Source: Helicobacter cetorum (GTDB lineage Bacteria > Campylobacterota > Campylobacteria > Campylobacterales > DZAY01). Taken from it: a DNA stretch of 64,000 nucleotides. Position numbers and translations under genes: made by a program. The DNA lies in the NCBI GenBank assembly GCA_022729735.1, contig DZAY01000011.1, forward strand, positions 5,066-69,065. Reading direction: 5' to 3'. The notes beneath the pieces were generated by a model. That model did not search any database. It was not told the origin of the DNA and worked only from the letters and a program-made list of their open reading frames with translations. Below, piece after piece: positions 47,921 through 57,382 of this stretch; the first letter of the stretch is position 1, and each line of letters opens with the position of its first letter.

Positions 47921-48958
47921 ATGTTTAATAGCAAAAATAAATCAATTTTATTAACAGGCTGTGCAGGTTTTATTGGAAGTAATTTTGTACCATATTTTTT
48001 AGAAAAATATGAAAATTATAATTTAATTAATTTAGATTTACTAACTTATGCGGGAAATTTAGAAAACTTAAAAGAGGTAGCAAATCATATACGATATAAG
48101 TTTATAAAAGGTGATATTTGCAATCGTGAATTAGTTGAGTTTATATTTCATGAATTTGACATAAGAGGTGTTATTAATTTTGCTGCAGAAAGCCATGTTG
48201 ATAACTCTATAAAAAATCCAGAAAGTTTTATAAAAACCAATGTAAATGGAACTTTTACTTTAGTTGATGTAGCTTATAAAAAATGGATGGAAAAGCCATT
48301 TATTTATAAAGAGAAATATCAAAATTGTCGCTTTCATCATATTTCAACAGATGAAGTTTATGGTTCATTAAGCGATAACCCAAACGAACTATTTACTGAA
48401 AAAACTCCATATGCTCCAAACTCACCATATAGTTCATCTAAAGCAAGTAGTGATATGATTATCAGAGCATATCATGAGACTTATGGATTAAATACAATTA
48501 TAACAAATTGTAGTAATAATTATGGAGCAAAACAGCATGATGAAAAATTAATACCTACAATTATTAGAAATGCTTTATTGGGAAATCCTATTCCAATTTA
48601 TGGAGATGGCAAAAATATTAGAGACTGGCTTTATGTCTTAGACCATTGCAAAGGAATTGATTTAGTCTATCACAATGGTAAAAATGGTGAAACTTATAAT
48701 ATTGGTGGCAGAAACGAGCGAACAAATCTGCAAATAGTGAATACAATTTGTGAAATCTTAGATAAAATTATACCAAAAGAAAAAAGCTATAAAGAGTTAA
48801 TAACATTTGTTGAAGATAGAGCAGGACATGACAAGCGATATGCAATAGATGCTACTAAAATAGAAAGTGAGCTTGGCTGGAGGGCAGATGAAAACTTCAA
48901 TACAGGAATAATTAAGACTATTAAGTGGTATTTGAATAAATATAAAGGCAGTATATGA
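47921..48958 (+). CDS. rfbB: dTDP-glucose 4,6-dehydratase
   Basis: TGCAGFIGSNF, TDEVYG and YSSSKASSD motifs; 345 aa. Confidence 0.9.
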   Translation: MFNSKNKSILLTGCAGFIGSNFVPYFLEKYENYNLINLDLLTYAGNLENLKEVANHIRYKFIKGDICNRELVEFIFHEFDIRGVINFAAESHVDNSIKNPESFIKTNVNGTFTLVDVAYKKWMEKPFIYKEKYQNCRFHHISTDEVYGSLSDNPNELFTEKTPYAPNSPYSSSKASSDMIIRAYHETYGLNTIITNCSNNYGAKQHDEKLIPTIIRNALLGNPIPIYGDGKNIRDWLYVLDHCKGIDLVYHNGKNGETYNIGGRNERTNLQIVNTICEILDKIIPKEKSYKELITFVEDRAGHDKRYAIDATKIESELGWRADENFNTGIIKTIKWYLNKYKGSI

Positions 48959-50088
48959 TACCGTTTCACAAACCATATTTGAAAAATATTGAATTTAATT
49001 ACTTACAAAAAGCAATAAAAAATTTAAAACTATCTGGTGATGGTGACTTTACAATTGAATGTCATAAATGGCTAAAAGAATATACAAAAACTAATAAAGT
49101 TTTACTAACTACATCTTGCACACATGCTCTTGAAATGAGTGCAATATTAACTAATATACAATATGGCGATGAGGTTATCATGCCAAGTTTCACATTTGTA
49201 TCTACTGCAAATGCATTTGTGCTTCGAGGTGCTAAAATAATTTTTGTAGATATTAGAGCTGACACTATGAATATTGATGAAAATAAAATAGAACAAGCCA
49301 TCACTTCAAAAACTAAAGCTATAGTTCCAGTTCATTATGCTGGAGTTAGTTGTGAGATGGATACAATAATGTCTATAGCGAATAAATATAATCTTTTTGT
49401 AATAGAAGATGCAGCACAAGCCATATCTTCAACTTATAAAAATAGACATTTAGGAACAATAGGGAATTTAGGAACTTATAGTTTTCATGATACAAAAAAT
49501 ATAACTTGTGGTGAAGGTGGTGTATTATTAATAAATGATAATAGTTTTACTGAAAGAGCTGAAATTATAAGAGAAAAAGGAACAAATCGAAGTCAATTTT
49601 TTAGAGGACAAGTAGATAAATATAGTTGGCAGGATATAGGAAGTAGTTATCTACCAAGTGAGCTTAATGCCGCAATTTTATTAGCTCAATTAGAAAAATT
49701 AAATGATATTCAAGCAAAAAGATTATTTATTTGGAATAGATATTTTGAACTTCTTTTGCCATTGCAAACTAGAAATTTATTGGAGTTGCCATATATACCT
49801 AATGAATGTAATCATAATGCACACATTTTTTATTTGAAAGTAAAAGATTTAGAAACAAGAGGGAAATTAATTGAATATTTAAAACAACATAATATTTTGT
49901 CTGTTTTTCATTATGTACCTCTTCATCGCAGTGAGGCTGGAGCAAAATTTGGTAGATTTATTGGTGAAGATAAATATACTACAAAAGAGAGTGAGAGATT
50001 ATTGAGATTACCTCTATTTTTCGAGCTTGAGATGAAAGATATTGAGTATATTTGTGAAAAAATATACTCTTTTTTTAACTTAAAATAA
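48955..50088 (+). CDS. wecE: dTDP-4-amino-4,6-dideoxyhexose aminotransferase (WecE/RffA-like, DegT family)
   Basis: From memory, it is colinear with E. coli WecE: MIPF..., EVIMPSFTFVSTANAFVLRGAKI.FVD, REKGTNRSQFFRGQVDKY.W.DIGSSY and TTKESERLLRLPLF. Confidence 0.85.
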   Translation: MIPFHKPYLKNIEFNYLQKAIKNLKLSGDGDFTIECHKWLKEYTKTNKVLLTTSCTHALEMSAILTNIQYGDEVIMPSFTFVSTANAFVLRGAKIIFVDIRADTMNIDENKIEQAITSKTKAIVPVHYAGVSCEMDTIMSIANKYNLFVIEDAAQAISSTYKNRHLGTIGNLGTYSFHDTKNITCGEGGVLLINDNSFTERAEIIREKGTNRSQFFRGQVDKYSWQDIGSSYLPSELNAAILLAQLEKLNDIQAKRLFIWNRYFELLLPLQTRNLLELPYIPNECNHNAHIFYLKVKDLETRGKLIEYLKQHNILSVFHYVPLHRSEAGAKFGRFIGEDKYTTKESERLLRLPLFFELEMKDIEYICEKIYSFFNLK

Positions 50089-50121
50089 AATTATAGTAAT
50101 AGAAGAGTTAAGACTATATTT

Positions 50122-50244
50122 AATGTATTAGATTTTTTAAGACAATATAAAACTGAATTTTCATAGAACTATGGAGTTCAAAAAATATCACTATTTGGAA
50201 GTTATACTAAAGATACAGTTTATGACATGATCATATTAATATAG
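50122..50244 (+). pseudogene. Decayed relic of a MntA-type nucleotidyltransferase (antitoxin-like) gene
   Basis: The frame reads NVLDFLRQYKTEFS*NYGVQKISLFGSYTKDTVYDMIILI*. This resembles the N-terminus of minimal nucleotidyltransferases (..KYGVKKIxLFGSYARG..DIDILV). There is no start codon, there is an internal stop, and it is truncated. Confidence 0.45.
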
Positions 50245-50468
50245 CAAGTCTAAAAAAATTTTATTAAATATTATTTTAAAAAAGTGTATAAAAAGATATT
50301 TTTAAAATTCACTTTATATTAATTATTTTGATAGTTTTAGAGATTGTTATAAACAAAAAATAGAAAGAGTGCTTATTTGTTTTCTAAAAAGAGTAAGAAT
50401 TTATTATAGTTTATTGTTGATATTAGTAAACCATAATCATATAAAATATTTAACTAAAAGGATTTAAT

Positions 50469-51164
50469 ATGAAAAAAATAGCAATCTTGCAATCTAATTA
50501 TATCCCTTGGAAGGGATATTTTGATTTAATTAATATTGTAGATGAATTTATTATATATGATGATATGCAATATACTAAAAATGATTGGCGAAACAGAAAT
50601 AAGATAAAAACTCAACATGGTGTTCAATGGCTGACTATTCCAATAAAACAAGATAGTTTAGAACAAAAAATTAAAGATACAAAAGTAGCCGATGAATTAT
50701 GGCATAAAAAACATTGGAAAACTATACAACAAAATTATATGAATGCTAAATATTTTAAAGAGTATAGAGAATTGTTTGAGAATATATACTTAAATAATAA
50801 TAGTGAATTTTTAACAGATATAAATTATAAATTTATTCTAAATATAAACAAATTATTAAATATAAATACAAAAATATCATTTTCTTGGGATTATAACTTG
50901 ATTAGTGGCAAAACCGAAAGATTAATAGATTTATGCAAACAGACCAAAGCGAGTGAATACATATCTGGACCTTCTGCTAAAAGTTATATTGATGAAAAAT
51001 TATTTATTGAGAATAATATAAAATTAAGTTGGATAGATTACAGTGGTTATAAAGAGTATAATCAACTATATCCACCATTTGAACATGGAGTTAGTATATT
51101 AGATTTGATATTTAATGAAGGTTCTGATAGCATTTTATCAATGAAAAGTTTTAGAGAGGAATAA
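50469..51164 (+). CDS. WbqC-like family protein
   Basis: N-terminus MKKIAILQSNYIPWKGYFDLI with the size and pattern I associate with the WbqC-like family (PF08889). AAAAGGA lies upstream of the ATG. Confidence 0.65.
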   Translation: MKKIAILQSNYIPWKGYFDLINIVDEFIIYDDMQYTKNDWRNRNKIKTQHGVQWLTIPIKQDSLEQKIKDTKVADELWHKKHWKTIQQNYMNAKYFKEYRELFENIYLNNNSEFLTDINYKFILNINKLLNINTKISFSWDYNLISGKTERLIDLCKQTKASEYISGPSAKSYIDEKLFIENNIKLSWIDYSGYKEYNQLYPPFEHGVSILDLIFNEGSDSILSMKSFREE

Positions 51165-51169
51165 AATAA

Positions 51170-52084
51170 ATGACAACAAACATAAAACAGTCTGATTTAG
51201 ATAATTTACACAGTAAATTGTTTATAGGAGATTTTCCACCTGATGTAATAGTTGAAACAACTACAGCTTGTAACTATAAATGCACAATGTGCCACAACAA
51301 TAGTATGACACGAAAAAGTCAAAATGTAAAACCTGAAGTTTGGGATAAAGTTATAGATGAATTATCTATTAAAAAGCCTAATACAAAATTTTGGCTAACC
51401 TTTTATGGTGAAGCTTTAATTTTATTTGATAAAGTTTTATATGGATTGCAAAAAGCTACAGATAGTGGTGTTAAAAATACATATTTAAATACAAATGGTA
51501 GTTTGATGACAAATGAAAAATTTGAAAAATTATATAATGCAGGGTTAAAACATTTAGTCTATTCTGTTGATGGATATTCAAAAGATGTTTATGAAAAGAT
51601 TAGGATAGGTGGAAATAGAGATAAAGTTTATCAAAATATTATAAATACAATTGAATTAAATAAAAAACTTGGTGAGAATATTAATATTGAAGTACAAATG
51701 ATAGAATTAAACGAAAACAGCTTCGAAAAAGAAGTTTTTATTGATTTTTGGAAAAAACAAGGTGTAATTGTAAAAGTTAAAAAATTTTTAAATTGGACAG
51801 AAACAAACAAAAGCTTTTCTGAATATATAAATAATTTTCAAAGAATTGGTTGTCCTTGGGCATTTCAAACATTTGTTGTATTGGCAAATGGAGATGTACC
51901 TACTTGTGGTTGTGATTATGATGCAAAGTTTATTTATGGAAATATATTTGAAGAATCTATAGAATCTTTGTGGAACAAAAGAAAAGAACATTTAAATGCA
52001 CATCTTGATAAAGAATTTAATAAATTACCAAATGTATGTCAAAATTGTACTGACTGGTTTATAGCAGCTTCTGACAAAATCTAA
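51170..52084 (+). CDS. Radical SAM protein with SPASM/twitch-like Cys-rich C-terminus
   Basis: CNYKCTMC (CxxxCxxC), plus C-terminal cysteines CPW...CGCDYD...CQNC. Confidence 0.85.
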   Translation: MTTNIKQSDLDNLHSKLFIGDFPPDVIVETTTACNYKCTMCHNNSMTRKSQNVKPEVWDKVIDELSIKKPNTKFWLTFYGEALILFDKVLYGLQKATDSGVKNTYLNTNGSLMTNEKFEKLYNAGLKHLVYSVDGYSKDVYEKIRIGGNRDKVYQNIINTIELNKKLGENINIEVQMIELNENSFEKEVFIDFWKKQGVIVKVKKFLNWTETNKSFSEYINNFQRIGCPWAFQTFVVLANGDVPTCGCDYDAKFIYGNIFEESIESLWNKRKEHLNAHLDKEFNKLPNVCQNCTDWFIAASDKI

Positions 52085-52087
52085 AAT

Positions 52088-52891
52088 ATGAAAAAGATTG
52101 ATGTAATTTGTTTATGTTTGAAAGGTTTTGGTAATATTTTATTAGAAACTTTATTGAAATATGAAAATGTAAATATTGTTCAGTGTTATACAAGAAAAGA
52201 AAAATATAAATTTGTTTATTATGAGTGCGAAGACATAGAAACAATTTGTCAAAATCATAATATAGAACTTATTTATATTGATGAAAAAAGTAATTGGGAT
52301 ATTATGAAAAATGCTAATTTAATAATATCTTCATCTTTTCATAGAATATTAAAAGATAAACATTTAAGGATGGGTGATTTTAGTATCAATATTCATCCAT
52401 CACTTTTGCCTTCTTATAAAGGTTCTCTTCCAACAAACTGTTCAATATTAAATTATGAAAAAATAGTTGGAATAACTGCCCATTTTATTACTTCAGATAT
52501 AGATAGTGGTGATATTATATATCAAGAGAAAATGCTAAATCCATTTCTGACTGATAAAGAACTAAGAAAAGCTTTATCATTTTTATCTATTAATGCTATT
52601 AATTATATTATTAAAGAATTTCCAAACTATTATAAAATAACGACAAATATTATTGATTCTCATTGCTTAATTAATAGAGAATTAGATTCTATAATTGATT
52701 TATCAAATTTAAAAAACATAGAAGAGTTAATTTTTCATATTAAAGCTTATACAAATTATCCTATGCCGAAACTAAAATCATCTGATAACTCTATTTTTAT
52801 AATAGATTATGAGAATCCTAAAGAAATTTTTAAAATTAATATCAATAATGAAGAAATTAGCTTATTAGGATATTACGAATGCAAATTATAG
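52088..52891 (+). CDS. Formyltransferase-fold protein (putative sugar N-formyltransferase)
   Basis: INIHPSLLPSYKG and HFITSDIDSGDII match the Fmt/PurN/ArnA-type catalytic His and Asp motifs. There is also a small C-terminal domain. Confidence 0.7.
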   Translation: MKKIDVICLCLKGFGNILLETLLKYENVNIVQCYTRKEKYKFVYYECEDIETICQNHNIELIYIDEKSNWDIMKNANLIISSSFHRILKDKHLRMGDFSINIHPSLLPSYKGSLPTNCSILNYEKIVGITAHFITSDIDSGDIIYQEKMLNPFLTDKELRKALSFLSINAINYIIKEFPNYYKITTNIIDSHCLINRELDSIIDLSNLKNIEELIFHIKAYTNYPMPKLKSSDNSIFIIDYENPKEIFKININNEEISLLGYYECKL

Positions 52892-54078
52892 AAGAAATTA
52901 ATAAACTATTACCAAAATATATAGATTTGCTGTCAGAATTAATCAAATATCAATCCATTCAATATAATGAAGCAAATATACAATTTTTTATCAAATCTTT
53001 TTTAGAAAAAACATTAAAACAAAATGCTGAAATTTATTATTCAAGAGAAGACTTGCAATCTATAAATTTAGTCTCTGTTTTAAAAGGTAATAATCCAAAA
53101 AAGTATAAATCTTTGATATTAAACGCTCATAGTGATATAACTCCTGTCGATGGTGAAATATTGTGGAAATATCCACCATTTAGTGCATATATTCATAATA
53201 ATTTGATATATGGTAGAGGTTCAAAAGATGATAAAGCAGGTATTGCTATAATATTGCTAGTAATTAATGTAATTAAAAATCTTAATTTAAATATTGGTGG
53301 TGATATAATAATTCAATTTCCAATAGAAGATGAAACATCTGGAAATGGAACAAAAACACTAATTTATAATGGATATTGTGCAGATGGTGCAATCATTGTA
53401 GATGGAACTTGGAATAATAGAATAATATATTCTCATATAGGGCAGATATATTTAGATATATTTATTAATAATAATCATGTGTTTCCAGCATGTAATTGTG
53501 ATAGGGCAGATGATATTATATATTTAGCTTTTGAATTTATAAAAAATGTAAAAGCTTATGTTAATGCTTTAAATGAAAAATATGAGTTATTTGAGCAAAA
53601 AATAAAACCTTTTTTTGTAAATATTGGTTCATTTCATTCAGGTAAATGGCATGGAGCAACACCTTTTGATATAAAAATTGAAATGCAAATAGGTTTCTCT
53701 CATATAGATAGTTCAATTATATTTAATGAAATTAATAAAATGGCATTAAATATTTCTAAGAAAATTTATGTTAAAAAATCAACTATGGAAACAAATCAAT
53801 TTATTGGAGATAAGAATAGTGACTTTATTAAACTATTACAAAATACAATTACAAAGAATTCTAATGAAATAGTAAATGTTGTTCCAGCACAAGGATATAG
53901 TGATATGAGGCATTTTAAAACAAAAAATGTATGTATGTATGGGCCGGGCAAAGGTGCTAATAATCATGCCATTGATGAATATTATGATTTAAATGATATG
54001 CCAATCGTAGCACAAAACATTATAGAATTTTGTATGAATTGGTGTAATCTAAAAAAGGATGTTAATAATGAAAAATAA
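52879..54078 (+). CDS. M20 family metallohydrolase (ArgE/DapE-like deacylase)
   Basis: AHSD, GRGSKDDKAG, IEDETSGNG and a C-terminal NHAIDEY match the M20 metal and catalytic motifs. Confidence 0.75.
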   Translation: MQIIEEINKLLPKYIDLLSELIKYQSIQYNEANIQFFIKSFLEKTLKQNAEIYYSREDLQSINLVSVLKGNNPKKYKSLILNAHSDITPVDGEILWKYPPFSAYIHNNLIYGRGSKDDKAGIAIILLVINVIKNLNLNIGGDIIIQFPIEDETSGNGTKTLIYNGYCADGAIIVDGTWNNRIIYSHIGQIYLDIFINNNHVFPACNCDRADDIIYLAFEFIKNVKAYVNALNEKYELFEQKIKPFFVNIGSFHSGKWHGATPFDIKIEMQIGFSHIDSSIIFNEINKMALNISKKIYVKKSTMETNQFIGDKNSDFIKLLQNTITKNSNEIVNVVPAQGYSDMRHFKTKNVCMYGPGKGANNHAIDEYYDLNDMPIVAQNIIEFCMNWCNLKKDVNNEK

Positions 54079-55015
54079 TTTACTATATTCTGTTGTTATT
54101 CCTGTATATAATAGTGGTAATATAGTTTCAACAACTATTGAAGAGGTTATAAATTTTTTTATAAAAGAAAAATTAAAATTTGAAATTATACTTGTAAATG
54201 ATGGAAGTAAAGATAATAGCTGGGAAGTCATATCTAAAATTTCAAATACTAATTCCAATATTATTGCTATTAACTTATTAAAAAACTATGGTCAGCATAA
54301 TGCGATATTTTGTGGATTAAAATACACTAATGGTGATTATATAATTACAATGGATGACGATATGCAGAATCCACCTTCTGAAATAAATCATTTAATAAAT
54401 AAAGCATTAGAAGGTTATGATTTGGTTTTTGGACAATATGAACAAAAACAGCACAGCATATTTAAAAAACTGACATCGAAATTGTATAATTATGTAGTTA
54501 AAAAAATATTTGATGTTCCAGATGGTATTACAATATCAAATTTTAAAATTTTTCATAAAAGTGTAGTAAATCGAATTACATCTTACAAAACATTATATCC
54601 ATATATATCTGGTTTGGGATTAATGTATGCTTCTAATATTTGTATGGTTAATGTAATTCATAACAAAAGAGAAGTTGGTTCATCAACATATACTTTATTT
54701 AAAATGTTAAAAATGATGGCAACAGTTACATTTAATTATTCTACATATCCATTAAAATTTCTAGGTTTTTTAGGTTTTTTTATATCTTTATTAAGTTTTT
54801 CAATAGGTCTTTTTTATATGATAAGAAATATAATTTATAATGATGGTTTAGTTGGTTGGACATCTTTGGTAGTATTAATATCATTTTTAGGTGGATATAT
54901 GATTATGATGATAGGAATAATAGGTGATTATATAGGTAGAATTTTATTACAACAATCAACTGGTAGTACATATGAAATTAAAGAGACATTAGGATGTAAA
55001 AATGAAAGAGTGTGA
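54059..55015 (+). CDS. Polyprenyl-phosphate glycosyltransferase (GT2, ArnC/GtrB/DPM1 type)
   Basis: VVIPVYN, VNDGSKDNS and MDDDMQNPPSEI, plus two C-terminal TM helices; 318 aa. Confidence 0.85.
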   Translation: MLIMKNNLLYSVVIPVYNSGNIVSTTIEEVINFFIKEKLKFEIILVNDGSKDNSWEVISKISNTNSNIIAINLLKNYGQHNAIFCGLKYTNGDYIITMDDDMQNPPSEINHLINKALEGYDLVFGQYEQKQHSIFKKLTSKLYNYVVKKIFDVPDGITISNFKIFHKSVVNRITSYKTLYPYISGLGLMYASNICMVNVIHNKREVGSSTYTLFKMLKMMATVTFNYSTYPLKFLGFLGFFISLLSFSIGLFYMIRNIIYNDGLVGWTSLVVLISFLGGYMIMMIGIIGDYIGRILLQQSTGSTYEIKETLGCKNERV

Positions 55016-55730
55016 TGAATTAAAAGTTTTAAATAGGTTTAGCAATTATTATAAACAATATGGTTTTTCTCAATCTGGAGTTGGTTGGGAAAAAGGAAGA
55101 CAAAATTTAAGATTTGAACTTCTTACTTCTGAATGGGGAGAAGACGAAAATATGCAACATTCAACTTTTCTTGATTTAGGTTGTGGTTTTGGGCATATGT
55201 ATCCATTCTTAATAAAGAAATATAAAAATATTTTAAGATATAAAGGGATAGATTTAAATAGTGATTTAATTAATCAAGCAAAAGAAATGTTTCATAATGA
55301 AAAAAACATATTTTTTGAAGCTAAAAATATGCTACATATAGATTTAAATGAAAAATTCGATTATGTATTAAGCTCAGGTGCTTTTAATGTTAAATTTTCT
55401 GAAAACGAATCAAATGAAAAATTTATTTTTAAAATGTTGGAAAAATCATTTTTTATTTCTAATATTGCTGTTGCTTTTAATTTTTTATCTGATAAAGTTG
55501 ATTATAAACAGGAACATGCTTTTTATGCTTCTCCAGAAAGAGTTTTAAACTTTTGTTACTCTTTAACAAGAAATTTAATACTAAAAAATACTATTTTTCC
55601 ATTTGAATTTACAATTATACTTTATAAAGACCAATCCTTTGAAACAAATGATAGTATATTCAATGAATATAAAAAAGGATTATCAGAAAGTAATTATAAT
55701 TATTTAGTTAAAGGAGAAATTATTATTTGA
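55002..55730 (+). CDS. Class I SAM-dependent methyltransferase
   Basis: Motif I is FLDLGCGFGHM, within a Rossmann-like layout. Confidence 0.7.
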   Translation: MKECDELKVLNRFSNYYKQYGFSQSGVGWEKGRQNLRFELLTSEWGEDENMQHSTFLDLGCGFGHMYPFLIKKYKNILRYKGIDLNSDLINQAKEMFHNEKNIFFEAKNMLHIDLNEKFDYVLSSGAFNVKFSENESNEKFIFKMLEKSFFISNIAVAFNFLSDKVDYKQEHAFYASPERVLNFCYSLTRNLILKNTIFPFEFTIILYKDQSFETNDSIFNEYKKGLSESNYNYLVKGEIII

Positions 55731-57382
55731 ATAAAATAAGAGTAAGTATAAAATATATTAATTTTGCTTTTTTATTTTTTATTTTTTTATTTTTTATAAT
55801 AAATTTAAATTTTTCATTGCCAATAGAAGCTATTCCAGATGAAGTTGCTCAATTAAAAAATATTTATGCAATGATAAATTCAAAAAGTCTATTTTTGACA
55901 TATCAATCATCATATTCTGTATGGACTCACTATACATATATAATACCCACACTTATTTATTGGATATTTTTTTATATATTTTCTGATTTATTATCTATTA
56001 ATGAATTAAAATTTTATATTCTTAATAACTATCAAGATGTATTGCCGTTTTTAAGACTATATACAGCTATGGTATTTTTAATCGGACTTTATTTAATAAA
56101 AATTGTAATAGATAATTTATTAAATAAAATACAAGCTTTGCTATTTTTAATTTTTATAGGTTTTAATCTATTAATTGTGATTAATGTGCATTATGCAAAA
56201 CATTGGATGATGGATTATGGGCTAATATTTATAGCTTTATATTTATATTATATATATAGTATTAACAATAATAATAAGGTTATATTACTATTTAGTTTTA
56301 TAACTTTTGCTATTGCTTCATTTTCAACTCAACTTTTTATTATATATTCATTTTATTTTTTATTAATTGATATTCTTTTAAAGAAAGAGTCAAAAAAAAT
56401 AATATTTAATATCTTAATATTTATATCTATTTTAATAATTTTCTTTTTTATTACAAGATACTTGGGTGCTGGTGGTGTTTTTGAAGGAAAAGAAAATAAG
56501 TTATCTGAACTCTTATTTTCCAATAACTATTTTATAGATATAGTATATATATTTTATGACTATAATACAATAGTTTTTATTTTATTTATTATGTCATTAG
56601 TTTTTTTAGCTATTAAAAATAGATATTTTACTATCTTAATATCATTAATACCATTTTTATTAATGTTAGTTATTGTATCTGTTTTTTCACATTTTGAAAC
56701 TCGTTATGCAATACCATTTATGATAGAATCATCATTTATAGCTACATTTTTTGCTTACTATTTATATCAATATTATAAAAAAATATTTTATGTTTTTATA
56801 ATATTATATATATTTGCTAATTCTTACTTAATAATAAATTGGTTAAATATCATATCAAATAAAGATACAAGAGTTCTGACAAGAGAGTGGATATTAGAAC
56901 AAGACATGACAAATAACTTTTATATTTATAATACTTTGGGATTTAACTATGTAGCTCTTACAAAACATTCGATAGATTTTATTAAGTCAAACTTCCCAAA
57001 AGCGATAGGCACAAGAGAAGAGATGCACATTAATTATAATTTAAATGATGGAAAAGATGGTCTTATTTTATGGAAATTCGACCAAGCTGGATATAATATT
57101 GTTGAGCTAATTAATAAATTAAAAGAAAATGGATATAAAATAATCTTTATAAATGAAAGGCATGGCAAAATAGCACTTCATTATCAACCATCACCAAATA
57201 GTTATGAAACATTTGTAAAGAGTTTTAATCCAACTATGATAAAAGAGTTTTTGCCATACAAAAAAGAGCCAAAAGATAGAGAGTTGATAGGAGATGTTTT
57301 ATATAACTTCAACTATGTTTGGCAAACTTTGAATATTTTAGAGAGAAGTGGTCCAGTTATAAATATTTATGAAGTTAAATAG
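55727..57382 (+). CDS. Polytopic membrane protein, probable GT-C (ArnT/PMT-like) glycosyltransferase
   Basis: About 11-13 hydrophobic segments, an acidic PDE motif in the first extracytoplasmic loop ([10 protein letters not shown]), and a ~170-aa soluble C-terminal domain. It lies directly downstream of the ArnC-type GT2. Confidence 0.55.

Follow-up and report, generated by a model that had tools for sequence, protein, structure and literature searches.

A nine-gene Helicobacter cetorum locus that probably directs three-component-type glycosylation with a tailored dTDP-amino-dideoxyhexose

Results

A polyprenyl-phosphate glycosyltransferase, a GT-C enzyme and genes for a dTDP-amino sugar

A 64-kb stretch of Helicobacter cetorum DNA, which we call the window in its entirety, contains a locus of nine plus-strand open reading frames (ORFs) at positions 47921-57382. 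This locus probably encodes three-component-type extracytoplasmic glycosylation with a tailored dTDP-4-amino-4,6-dideoxyhexose. The evidence comes from a polyprenyl-phosphate glycosyltransferase, a 551-aa protein with a predicted GT-C fold, two genes for a dTDP-amino sugar, and the recurrence of these components among ~55 related loci, against each of which all nine window proteins were scored by tblastn.

The GT2 of the locus is, by homology, a polyprenyl-phosphate glycosyltransferase of the ArnC/GtrB/DPMS class. Searches against the PDB matched it to ArnC (9hwj, 7.6e-46), GtrB (5ekp, sll0501; 2.2e-44) and DPMS (1.9e-13). Indeed, residues 9-309 align with residues 10-311 of ArnC and 27-328 of GtrB, including the two C-terminal transmembrane (TM) helices (hydrophobic segments 231-256 and 263-292), whereas cytoplasmic GT2s align with it through the N-terminal GT-A core only. 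The DxD within MDDDMQNPP (D98-D100), NYGQH, QNPP and R204, the equivalent of ArnC R205, are conserved. Full-length alignment, catalytic motifs and the TM hairpin thus group the protein with ArnC and GtrB and not with cytoplasmic Leloir GT2s, as a prediction made earlier from the sequence (the original prediction) had supposed. The ArnC model NF007986 likewise aligns over the full length (1.1e-55), but the score of 189 bits is far under the 529-bit equivalog cutoff, and so the enzyme is a polyprenyl-phosphate GT2 without being an ArnC ortholog.

The 551-aa protein encoded at the end of the locus is, by its modelled fold, a GT-C glycosyltransferase that lies outside the ArnT/PMT profiles. It had no Pfam or NCBIfam match at E <= 0.01, falling short of the gathering thresholds of PF02366 and PF13231 (ArnT/PMT_2; GT83/GT39), and a profile of the family retrieved nothing meaningful from PDB sequences. 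Its family is small and carries no annotation. A word-indexed search of 5.8 billion proteins found 22 relatives (36-49% identity), and when 1.84 billion representatives were searched exhaustively with a profile, 18 matched at E <= 1e-30 and 482 at E <= 1e-3; a scan of genome contigs with the family alignment returned 34 pattern matches, none of them confirmed as a relative. An AlphaFold2 (AF2) model built on the family alignment (pLDDT 88.7, pTM 0.88) has a membrane-helix domain to about residue 377, followed by a C-terminal alpha/beta domain of ~170 aa. When the model was submitted to Foldseek, the 20 best PDB matches were all GT-C enzymes, namely ALG12, STT3 (yeast and human), ArnT, ALG9, PglB and AglB, with a probability of 1.0 for the top matches and E = 1.4e-6 and TM-scores of 0.54/0.61 for ALG12. 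The confident model and these matches bear out a GT-C fold. Several remote sequence relatives also carry PMT_2 or Glyco_transf_22 (Alg9-like) domains above Pfam thresholds, and the member found in Ca. Thioglobus autotrophicus (38% identity) bears the NCBI name "ArnT family glycosyltransferase". The PDE loop motif noticed earlier, P37-D38-E39, comes directly behind the first hydrophobic segment; D38 and E39 do not vary among 22 members of the family, and three K/R residues at the N-terminus are consistent with its cytoplasmic location.

Donor supply is indicated by the first two genes of the locus. RfbB scores 464.9 bits against TIGR01181 (cutoff 365.1), and a 77%-identical ortholog occurs in one locus with a GT-C homolog (L016), which also has FdtA. 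WecE exceeds the cutoffs of both TIGR02379 (630 bits) and NF008687 (627 bits); homology would make it a Fuc4N-type enzyme, and the Qui4N subfamily model matches too. WecE orthologs with 52-65% identity adjoin WbqC in Aliarcobacter, Sulfurimonas, Neorhizobium and Azospirillum. RfbB and WecE constitute a dTDP-6-deoxyhexose route, and not the Ugd, ArnA dehydrogenase domain and ArnB of UDP-L-Ara4N supply.

Organisation of the locus

The ORF positions, the spacers and overlaps, the AT-rich gap and the motifs were all as the original prediction described them, and eight of its nine family assignments were upheld by profile search, the 551-aa protein being the one that has no Pfam or NCBIfam match. 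Spacers across the nine genes measure, in order, -4, 380, 5, 3, -13, -20, -14 and -4 bp. Consecutive ORFs from the formyltransferase to the GT-C gene therefore overlap by 4-20 bp, and those for WbqC, the radical SAM (S-adenosylmethionine) enzyme and the formyltransferase are spaced by 3-5 bp.

Table 1. Features of the locus, with window coordinates and the basis of each assignment
Feature	Position	Strand	Basis or remark
rfbB, dTDP-glucose 4,6-dehydratase	47921..48958	+	TIGR01181, PF16363
wecE/rffA-type dTDP-4-keto-6-deoxyglucose 4-aminotransferase	48955..50088	+	TIGR02379, NF008687
380-bp AT-rich spacer	50089..50468	.	17.6% GC; probable promoter site for the seven-gene block
WbqC-family protein	50469..51164	+	PF08889
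Radical SAM enzyme, partial SPASM/twitch-like C-terminal Cys cluster	51170..52084	+	PF04055 + PF13186
N10-formyl-tetrahydrofolate-type formyltransferase	52088..52891	+	PF00551
M20 (ArgE/DapE-type) metallo-amidohydrolase, predicted soluble	52879..54078	+	PF01546
ArnC/GtrB/DPMS-class GT2, two C-terminal TM helices	54059..55015	+	PF00535, NF007986
Class I SAM-dependent methyltransferase	55002..55730	+	PF13649, PF13847
551-aa GT-C fold glycosyltransferase (predicted), unclassified subfamily	55727..57382	+	AF2 model + Foldseek

The gap contains no credible ORF (none of at least 33 aa) and no Rfam RNA, and an Rfam scan of the whole locus gave no match. Promoter-like hexamers were not commoner in the gap than in shuffled sequence, and a terminator scan ended likewise; the spacer probably carries the promoter of the seven-gene block. 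At 23.1%, the GC content of this block is lower than that of rfbB-wecE and of the flanks with their housekeeping genes (28-30%); that of the whole window is 27.5%. Upstream lie pnp and psd, and downstream, on the opposite strand, rdgB, cysE, speA and hisS. The 3' ends of the GT-C gene and the convergent rdgB overlap by 8 bp (57375-57382), and nothing resembling a terminator lies between the two genes. Among species representatives, psd has its nearest homologs in Campylobacterales/Sulfurimonas metagenome-assembled genomes (~50% identity); we used psd homologs to look for an insertion between psd and rdgB, and the gene order around psd was not shared.

A tailoring module centred on WbqC

WbqC matches PF08889 with E = 4.5e-79. 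A sequence search of the PDB gave no match, one of phage GenBank records gave two unannotated matches, and the literature that we searched assigns the protein no function. Its AF2 model (pLDDT 82) has a single confident Foldseek match, BshC (4wbd; E = 2.4e-3, probability 1.0, TM-score 0.43), and weaker matches to nucleotide-binding and adenylating folds. BshC, the bacillithiol synthase, is a putative ligase that would attach cysteine to the amine of GlcN-malate. From these hints we propose that WbqC may, like BshC, be a ligase that forms an amide in a nucleotide-dependent reaction, here on the amine of the 4-amino sugar. Both proteins are tied to amino-sugar metabolism; they differ in that WbqC has 231 aa and BshC 540, the match is partial, and sequence similarity is not detectable.

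Other loci point in the same direction. On the Bacillus thuringiensis plasmid pHS18-1 (L026, 4795-12821), for example, WbqC is flanked by a GNAT protein, a PIG-L family deacetylase, a TIM-barrel protein and an M28 peptidase. The WbqC and PIG-L pair echoes BshC and BshB of bacillithiol synthesis, a pathway in which BshB precedes BshC, and M28 and M20 belong to one peptidase clan. The WbqC name stems from the E. coli O121 cluster, and the N-acetylglycine of the O121 O antigen is carried on Qui4N. This N-acetylglycine is amide-linked (PMC7685785). The O121 amide, the frequent acetyltransferase partner of WbqC and the PIG-L neighbour in B. thuringiensis all fit the BshC lead.

The radical SAM enzyme exceeds the cutoffs of both PF04055 and PF13186. 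Its CX3CX2C motif is at C34/C38/C41, and five C-terminal cysteines (C228, C246, C248, C290 and C293) compare with seven in a full SPASM domain. Since its best PDB relatives, BtrN (3e-10) and BlsE, both act on carbohydrates, this candidate sugar-modifying enzyme points to a sugar oxidation, an epimerisation or a related step and not to peptide maturation. A role as maturase of a ribosomally synthesised and post-translationally modified peptide was rejected in view of these relatives, of the lack of a nearby precursor peptide ORF and of recurrence with sugar genes. Homologs adjoin WbqC in L003, L005, L027 and five viral-contig loci. Similarly, methyltransferase homologs (27-35% identity) adjoin WbqC, the GT2 or the radical SAM enzyme in L004, L024, L028 and seven viral-contig loci. 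The methyltransferase met only generic SAM-binding-domain matches in the PDB, which do not discriminate between N- and O-methylation, and either is a putative modification of the sugar.

The formyltransferase is probably a sugar N-formyltransferase. It scores 62.5 bits against PF00551, has the Asn-His-Asp catalytic triad (N101 and H103 in NIHPSLLP, D139 in DSGDII), and gives its longest PDB alignments with the sugar N-formyltransferases FdtF, QdtF and WbtJ; VioF and ArnA match too. The M20 hydrolase matches PF01546, and TIGR01910 at 8.4e-52, under the cutoff of that model. It contains NAHSD, GSKDDKAG, IEDETSG and NNHAIDE, which we assigned by eye and take, from knowledge of the family, to be of the kind that holds metal or catalytic residues. 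The protein has no signal peptide and no TM segment, and because its sole hydrophobic stretch (119-140) lies inside the M20 fold, a transmembrane or periplasmic M20 was rejected.

Together the two genes raise the question of a strict Arn analogy, in which a transient formyl group would be placed on dTDP-Fuc4N, the M20 enzyme would deformylate Und-P-Fuc4NFo, and a cationic sugar would pass to lipid A or core phosphates and confer cationic peptide resistance. We regard this as unlikely, even though the formyltransferase, its triad intact, lies directly 5' of the M20 and GT2 genes in overlapping ORFs and ArnC accepts a formylated donor only (bioRxiv 10.1101/2025.01.29.634835). NYGQH and QNPP of the GT2 are shared with ArnC rather than GtrB, but the enzyme scores equally well against both; ArnT ranks high in the structural comparison of the GT-C protein, but homologous GT-C loci adjoin PglB and not lipid A genes. 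Nor does the analogy explain WbqC, the radical SAM enzyme or the methyltransferase. The locus has no ArnD-type (polysaccharide deacetylase family) deformylase, its sole hydrolase being the soluble M20 enzyme of ArgE/DapE type, which is unrelated to ArnD and has no membrane anchor. No homolog of the formyltransferase or of M20 came up in the ~55 related loci, and the alphaproteobacterial operons among them have an acetyltransferase and no deacylase. A formylate/deformylate cycle with M20 replacing ArnD is therefore without comparative support, and that part of the original prediction, like a lipid A target, is conjecture.

Modular conservation among related loci

The conservation pattern is modular. 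The seven genes that the original prediction treated as a set are not co-conserved as a unit but do recur as modules. The first of these combines the GT-C protein with a ~310-aa GT2 that has two C-terminal TM segments; this pairing was seen in most GT-C loci with enough flank (L001, L002, L009, L014, L015, L016 and one JGI contig). A GtrA-family (PF04138) flippase, absent from the window, is near the GT-C homolog in L002, L014 and L015, and PglB/STT3 is 3-8 kb from it in L001 and L014. Most GT-C loci also have DegT aminotransferases or other sugar-nucleotide genes, which vary from locus to locus and include a WecE ortholog of 58% identity in L015. Directly 3' of the GT-C homolog, three loci (L014, 12313-14473; L001, 12445-14566; L016, 11689-13823) encode a ~308-aa GT2 and an unannotated polytopic protein of ~400-414 aa, a pair that abuts PglB in L014. 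The polytopic protein, which has FPDE or FGDE near its N-terminus and matches PMT weakly (E = 1.7e-4), probably also belongs to the GT-C-like enzymes. In addition, two GT-C paralogs (46% and 48% identity to the window protein) stand 3.4 kb apart on the 1.37-Mb contig of L001 (4912-6558 and 10001-11668), each with an adjoining methyltransferase and with a GT2 in its vicinity, an arrangement that suggests that the module has duplicated and diversified.

A second module, WbqC with WecE, a polyprenyl-phosphate-type GT2 and a methyltransferase, recurs in Campylobacterota and Alphaproteobacteria. WbqC relatives reach 64-70% identity in Aliarcobacter, Sulfurimonas, Sulfuricurvum and Marinarcus, 52-56% in Peteryoungia and Neorhizobium, and 37% in Azospirillum. 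The GT2 gene directly follows wbqC in Sulfurimonas crateris, L023, Peteryoungia and Azospirillum. In S. crateris two half-size EamA proteins accompany it, and small EamA genes are present in L022, L024 and L028. The order in Peteryoungia and Azospirillum is EamA, WbqC, GT2, methyltransferase and acetyltransferase, to which Azospirillum adds RffA; in Neorhizobium WbqC is followed by a methyltransferase, GT2, a second methyltransferase, RfbA, RffA and RfbB. Two of these loci encode polytopic proteins that have no Pfam match and are, judged by sequence, candidate GT-C enzymes unrelated in sequence to the window family: a 527-aa protein of Azospirillum with HDD after TM1 (L028, 12952-14535, minus strand), and a 619-aa protein of Neorhizobium with DFTDD after TM1 (L025, 7145-9004), whose gene overlaps wbqC. 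The S. crateris locus (L022, 10762-16822) is also a surface-glycan island with embedded defence/addiction genes: a ParE toxin, an AbiC-like protein and an AAA_15/DUF3226 pair stand amid the WbqC, GT2, EamA and DegT genes.

The third module is the tailoring set itself. Radical SAM and/or methyltransferase homologs lie directly beside WbqC in 12 of 27 virus-classified contigs (IMG/VR, L029-L055) as well as in L003, L005 and L027; L003 (9001-14608) and L005 (9001-15944) each have two radical SAM/SPASM copies with WbqC. The virus-classified contigs also hold a 4,6-dehydratase-type short-chain dehydrogenase/reductase and DegT aminotransferases, and neither a GT2 nor a GT-C protein. It may be that phages bring with them a set of genes for a modified amino-dideoxy sugar. 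The core sequence proposed originally, from nucleotide amino sugar through polyprenyl-phosphate GT2 to GT-C, is thus seen again in the recurring GT-C/GT2 and WbqC/WecE/GT2/methyltransferase groups. The predicted tailoring by WbqC, radical SAM enzyme and methyltransferase survives as a recurrent module, but one that occurs also without lipid-loading genes.

These neighbourhoods accommodate a Gtr-like decoration at least as well as they do the strict Arn analogy. A stably N-acylated sugar, for example an N-formyl-aminoacyl- or N-formyl/N-methyl-Fuc4N, would here be added as a side branch to assembled lipooligosaccharide (LOS), O antigen or N-linked glycan, changing antigenicity or phage receptors with no deprotection step, and M20 would supply or edit the acyl or amino-acid precursor. 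We hold this to be a serious possibility, if one at somewhat less than even chance. GT-C homologs, together with GtrA flippases, are found inside or next to clusters of the pgl/PglB or O-antigen-like kind, but the window itself has no pgl or O-antigen genes. The O121 amide (PMC7685785) and the resemblance of WbqC to BshC speak for it, and the formyltransferase may replace the acetyltransferase that commonly travels with WbqC; on the other hand, the WbqC role is putative and that of M20 ad hoc. Antigen-variation loci typically combine low GC with a variable set of genes, and the Xanthomonas wxcK-O region, which adds dTDP-derived Fuc3NAc side branches, offers a genetic precedent (PMC12573098).

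A proposed pathway and the points against it

In the pathway that we consider probable, RfbB and WecE would turn dTDP-glucose, made with an RmlA encoded elsewhere, into dTDP-Fuc4N or dTDP-Qui4N, a step suggested by profile scores above curated cutoffs. WbqC, the radical SAM enzyme, the methyltransferase and the formyltransferase would then tailor the nucleotide sugar in the cytoplasm. Here WbqC, as a BshC-like ligase, may acylate the 4-amino group, possibly with an amino acid, the formyltransferase may cap the free amine so that the sugar is loaded in neutral form, and M20 may serve as a deacylase somewhere in the pathway. The GT2, given its full-length homology, catalytic motifs and membrane architecture, would move the sugar onto undecaprenyl phosphate; a flippase encoded outside the window would turn the lipid-linked sugar to the periplasmic face; and the GT-C enzyme, with the D38-E39 loop as its predicted catalytic acid/base site, would transfer it to a periplasmic acceptor. 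Candidate acceptors are LOS/lipid A, an O-antigen-like or N-linked glycan, and protein. Because several homologous loci lie beside PglB, and in view of the A. butzleri flagellin island described below, lipid A is only one of these. Donor synthesis, lipid loading and final transfer have strong homology or fold evidence behind them; the tailoring reactions and the flippase are what we infer.

Several points weigh against this pathway. The 380-bp gap parts rfbB-wecE from the other seven genes, so that the donor sugar is linked to the GT2 by association only, through operon packing and the recurrent WbqC-GT2-WecE association. Homologs of RmlA, GtrA, EamA/SMR, PglB and PglC were not detectable in the locus or the 64-kb window (the flippase search used tblastn with four EamA and four GtrA probes), which extends to the window the original remark that the locus has no rmlA and no flippase. 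ArnC R128 aligns with a Tyr in the GT2 of the locus. The structural match of WbqC to BshC is marginal by both E-value and TM-score, and we know of no in vitro reconstitution of the ligase chemistry of BshC itself. The GT-C family accompanies many different sugar-supply sets, and outside the window it was never found with WbqC, the radical SAM enzyme, the formyltransferase or M20. Finally, WbqC and WecE of Aliarcobacter butzleri (65% identity each; L020, 655-12525) belong to an island for flagellin glycosylation, which also encodes two flagellins, two Maf proteins, a WecF-like GT56, a hexapeptide acetyltransferase and a pair of methyltransferases, and no polyprenyl-phosphate GT2. The island implies, from its gene content, a Fuc4N-derived flagellin glycan in this emerging pathogen.

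Some of these same points would suit two pathways lying side by side, with rfbB-wecE, and perhaps WbqC, the radical SAM enzyme, the formyltransferase and M20, feeding a cytoplasmic Leloir route, for example to a flagellin or enterobacterial-common-antigen-like glycan, and a trio of GT2, methyltransferase and GT-C loading and transferring another, common sugar, such as UDP-Glc or UDP-GlcNAc. The gap between wecE and wbqC, the A. butzleri island with its GT56, the viral-classified contigs that carry tailoring genes without GT2 or GT-C, and the diversity of sugar genes in GT-C loci are all in keeping with it. Yet the seven genes from wbqC on are tightly packed, the GT2 directly follows WbqC in the four loci named above, and the locus has no Leloir glycosyltransferase for such a sugar, and we think this division improbable.

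A bolder version of the probable pathway would make WbqC a BshC-like ligase that adds an amino acid or another acyl group to the 4-amino group of dTDP-Fuc4N/Qui4N, and the common partner of polyprenyl-phosphate GT2, methyltransferase and diverse GT-C enzymes in widespread periplasmic systems that use dTDP-amino-dideoxyhexoses in Campylobacterota, Alpha- and Gammaproteobacteria, with M20 removing the formyl cap in the present locus to leave a cationic envelope amine. We give this little chance of being right as a whole. If true, a lineage that lacks Arn would have in it a functional counterpart of Ara4N modification.

Discussion

Three-component periplasmic glycosylation shapes antigenicity, phage receptors and cationic peptide resistance. 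The principle is known, and since the pathway logic is so familiar, the value of the present locus lies in new enzyme families and donor chemistry: the GT-C subfamily is unclassified, the donor is probably a dTDP-amino-dideoxyhexose, and the tailoring module is uncharacterised. To our knowledge, all characterised polyprenyl-phosphate GT2s of this class use a UDP- or GDP-sugar. Together with the WbqC/WecE/GT2/methyltransferase operons of other phyla, the locus points to a class of systems that would load tailored dTDP-4-amino-6-deoxyhexoses. It also offers leads, namely a function for the WbqC family (PF08889) that can be put to the test, a radical SAM enzyme that is a candidate for sugar modification, and a GT-C subfamily that is missing from Pfam and often found beside PglB in Campylobacterota.

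Comparison with described systems shows which parts are familiar. The Arn pathway (PmrHFIJKLM; ArnB, ArnA, ArnC, ArnD, ArnE/F and ArnT), which adds L-Ara4N to lipid A, shares with the locus a DegT-family aminotransferase for a 4-amino sugar nucleotide, a formyltransferase, a GT2 homologous to ArnC over its full length, and a last enzyme of the GT-C type (here by predicted fold) whose first periplasmic loop bears an acidic motif. The locus differs in its dTDP-6-deoxyhexose in place of UDP-L-Ara4N, in an M20 enzyme instead of an ArnD-family deformylase, in the lack of ArnE/F from the window, in a GT-C protein that matches no ArnT/PMT profile, and in the added WbqC, radical SAM enzyme and methyltransferase.

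The Gtr systems of O-antigen glucosylation (GtrA/GtrB/Gtr*), with CsbB/YfhO, GacI/GacL, LgmABC and FlmF2/FlmK/NaxD, share the logic in which a polyprenyl-phosphate GT2 and a flippase work with a serotype-specific GT-C enzyme. The GT2 matches GtrB, GT-C relatives adjoin GtrA-family flippases, and low GC and variable gene content are common to both. In contrast to the UDP-Glc, UDP-GlcNAc or UDP-GalNAc of those systems, the donor here would be a tailored dTDP-amino-dideoxyhexose; the window has no GtrA, and the GT-C protein is unclassified in Pfam. The GT136 pentofuranose system is likewise of the three-component type, and shows that new GT-C families are still being founded (PMC11127046).

A third group is made up of the loci with WbqC, comprising the O-antigen cluster of E. 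coli O121/S. dysenteriae 7 and the uncharacterised WbqC-GT2-methyltransferase-acetyltransferase-EamA-RffA operons of Rhizobiaceae and Azospirillum. Like the window, these operons encode WecE/RffA, a ~310-aa GT2 that has two TM helices at its C-terminus, a class I methyltransferase homologous to that of the window and a polytopic protein whose loop bears an acidic motif, although their polytopic proteins have no detectable homology to the GT-C protein of the window. Where they encode a hexapeptide acetyltransferase and a small EamA protein, the window has the formyltransferase, M20 and radical SAM enzyme and no transporter, and among the loci sampled the combination of formyltransferase and M20 is unique to it.

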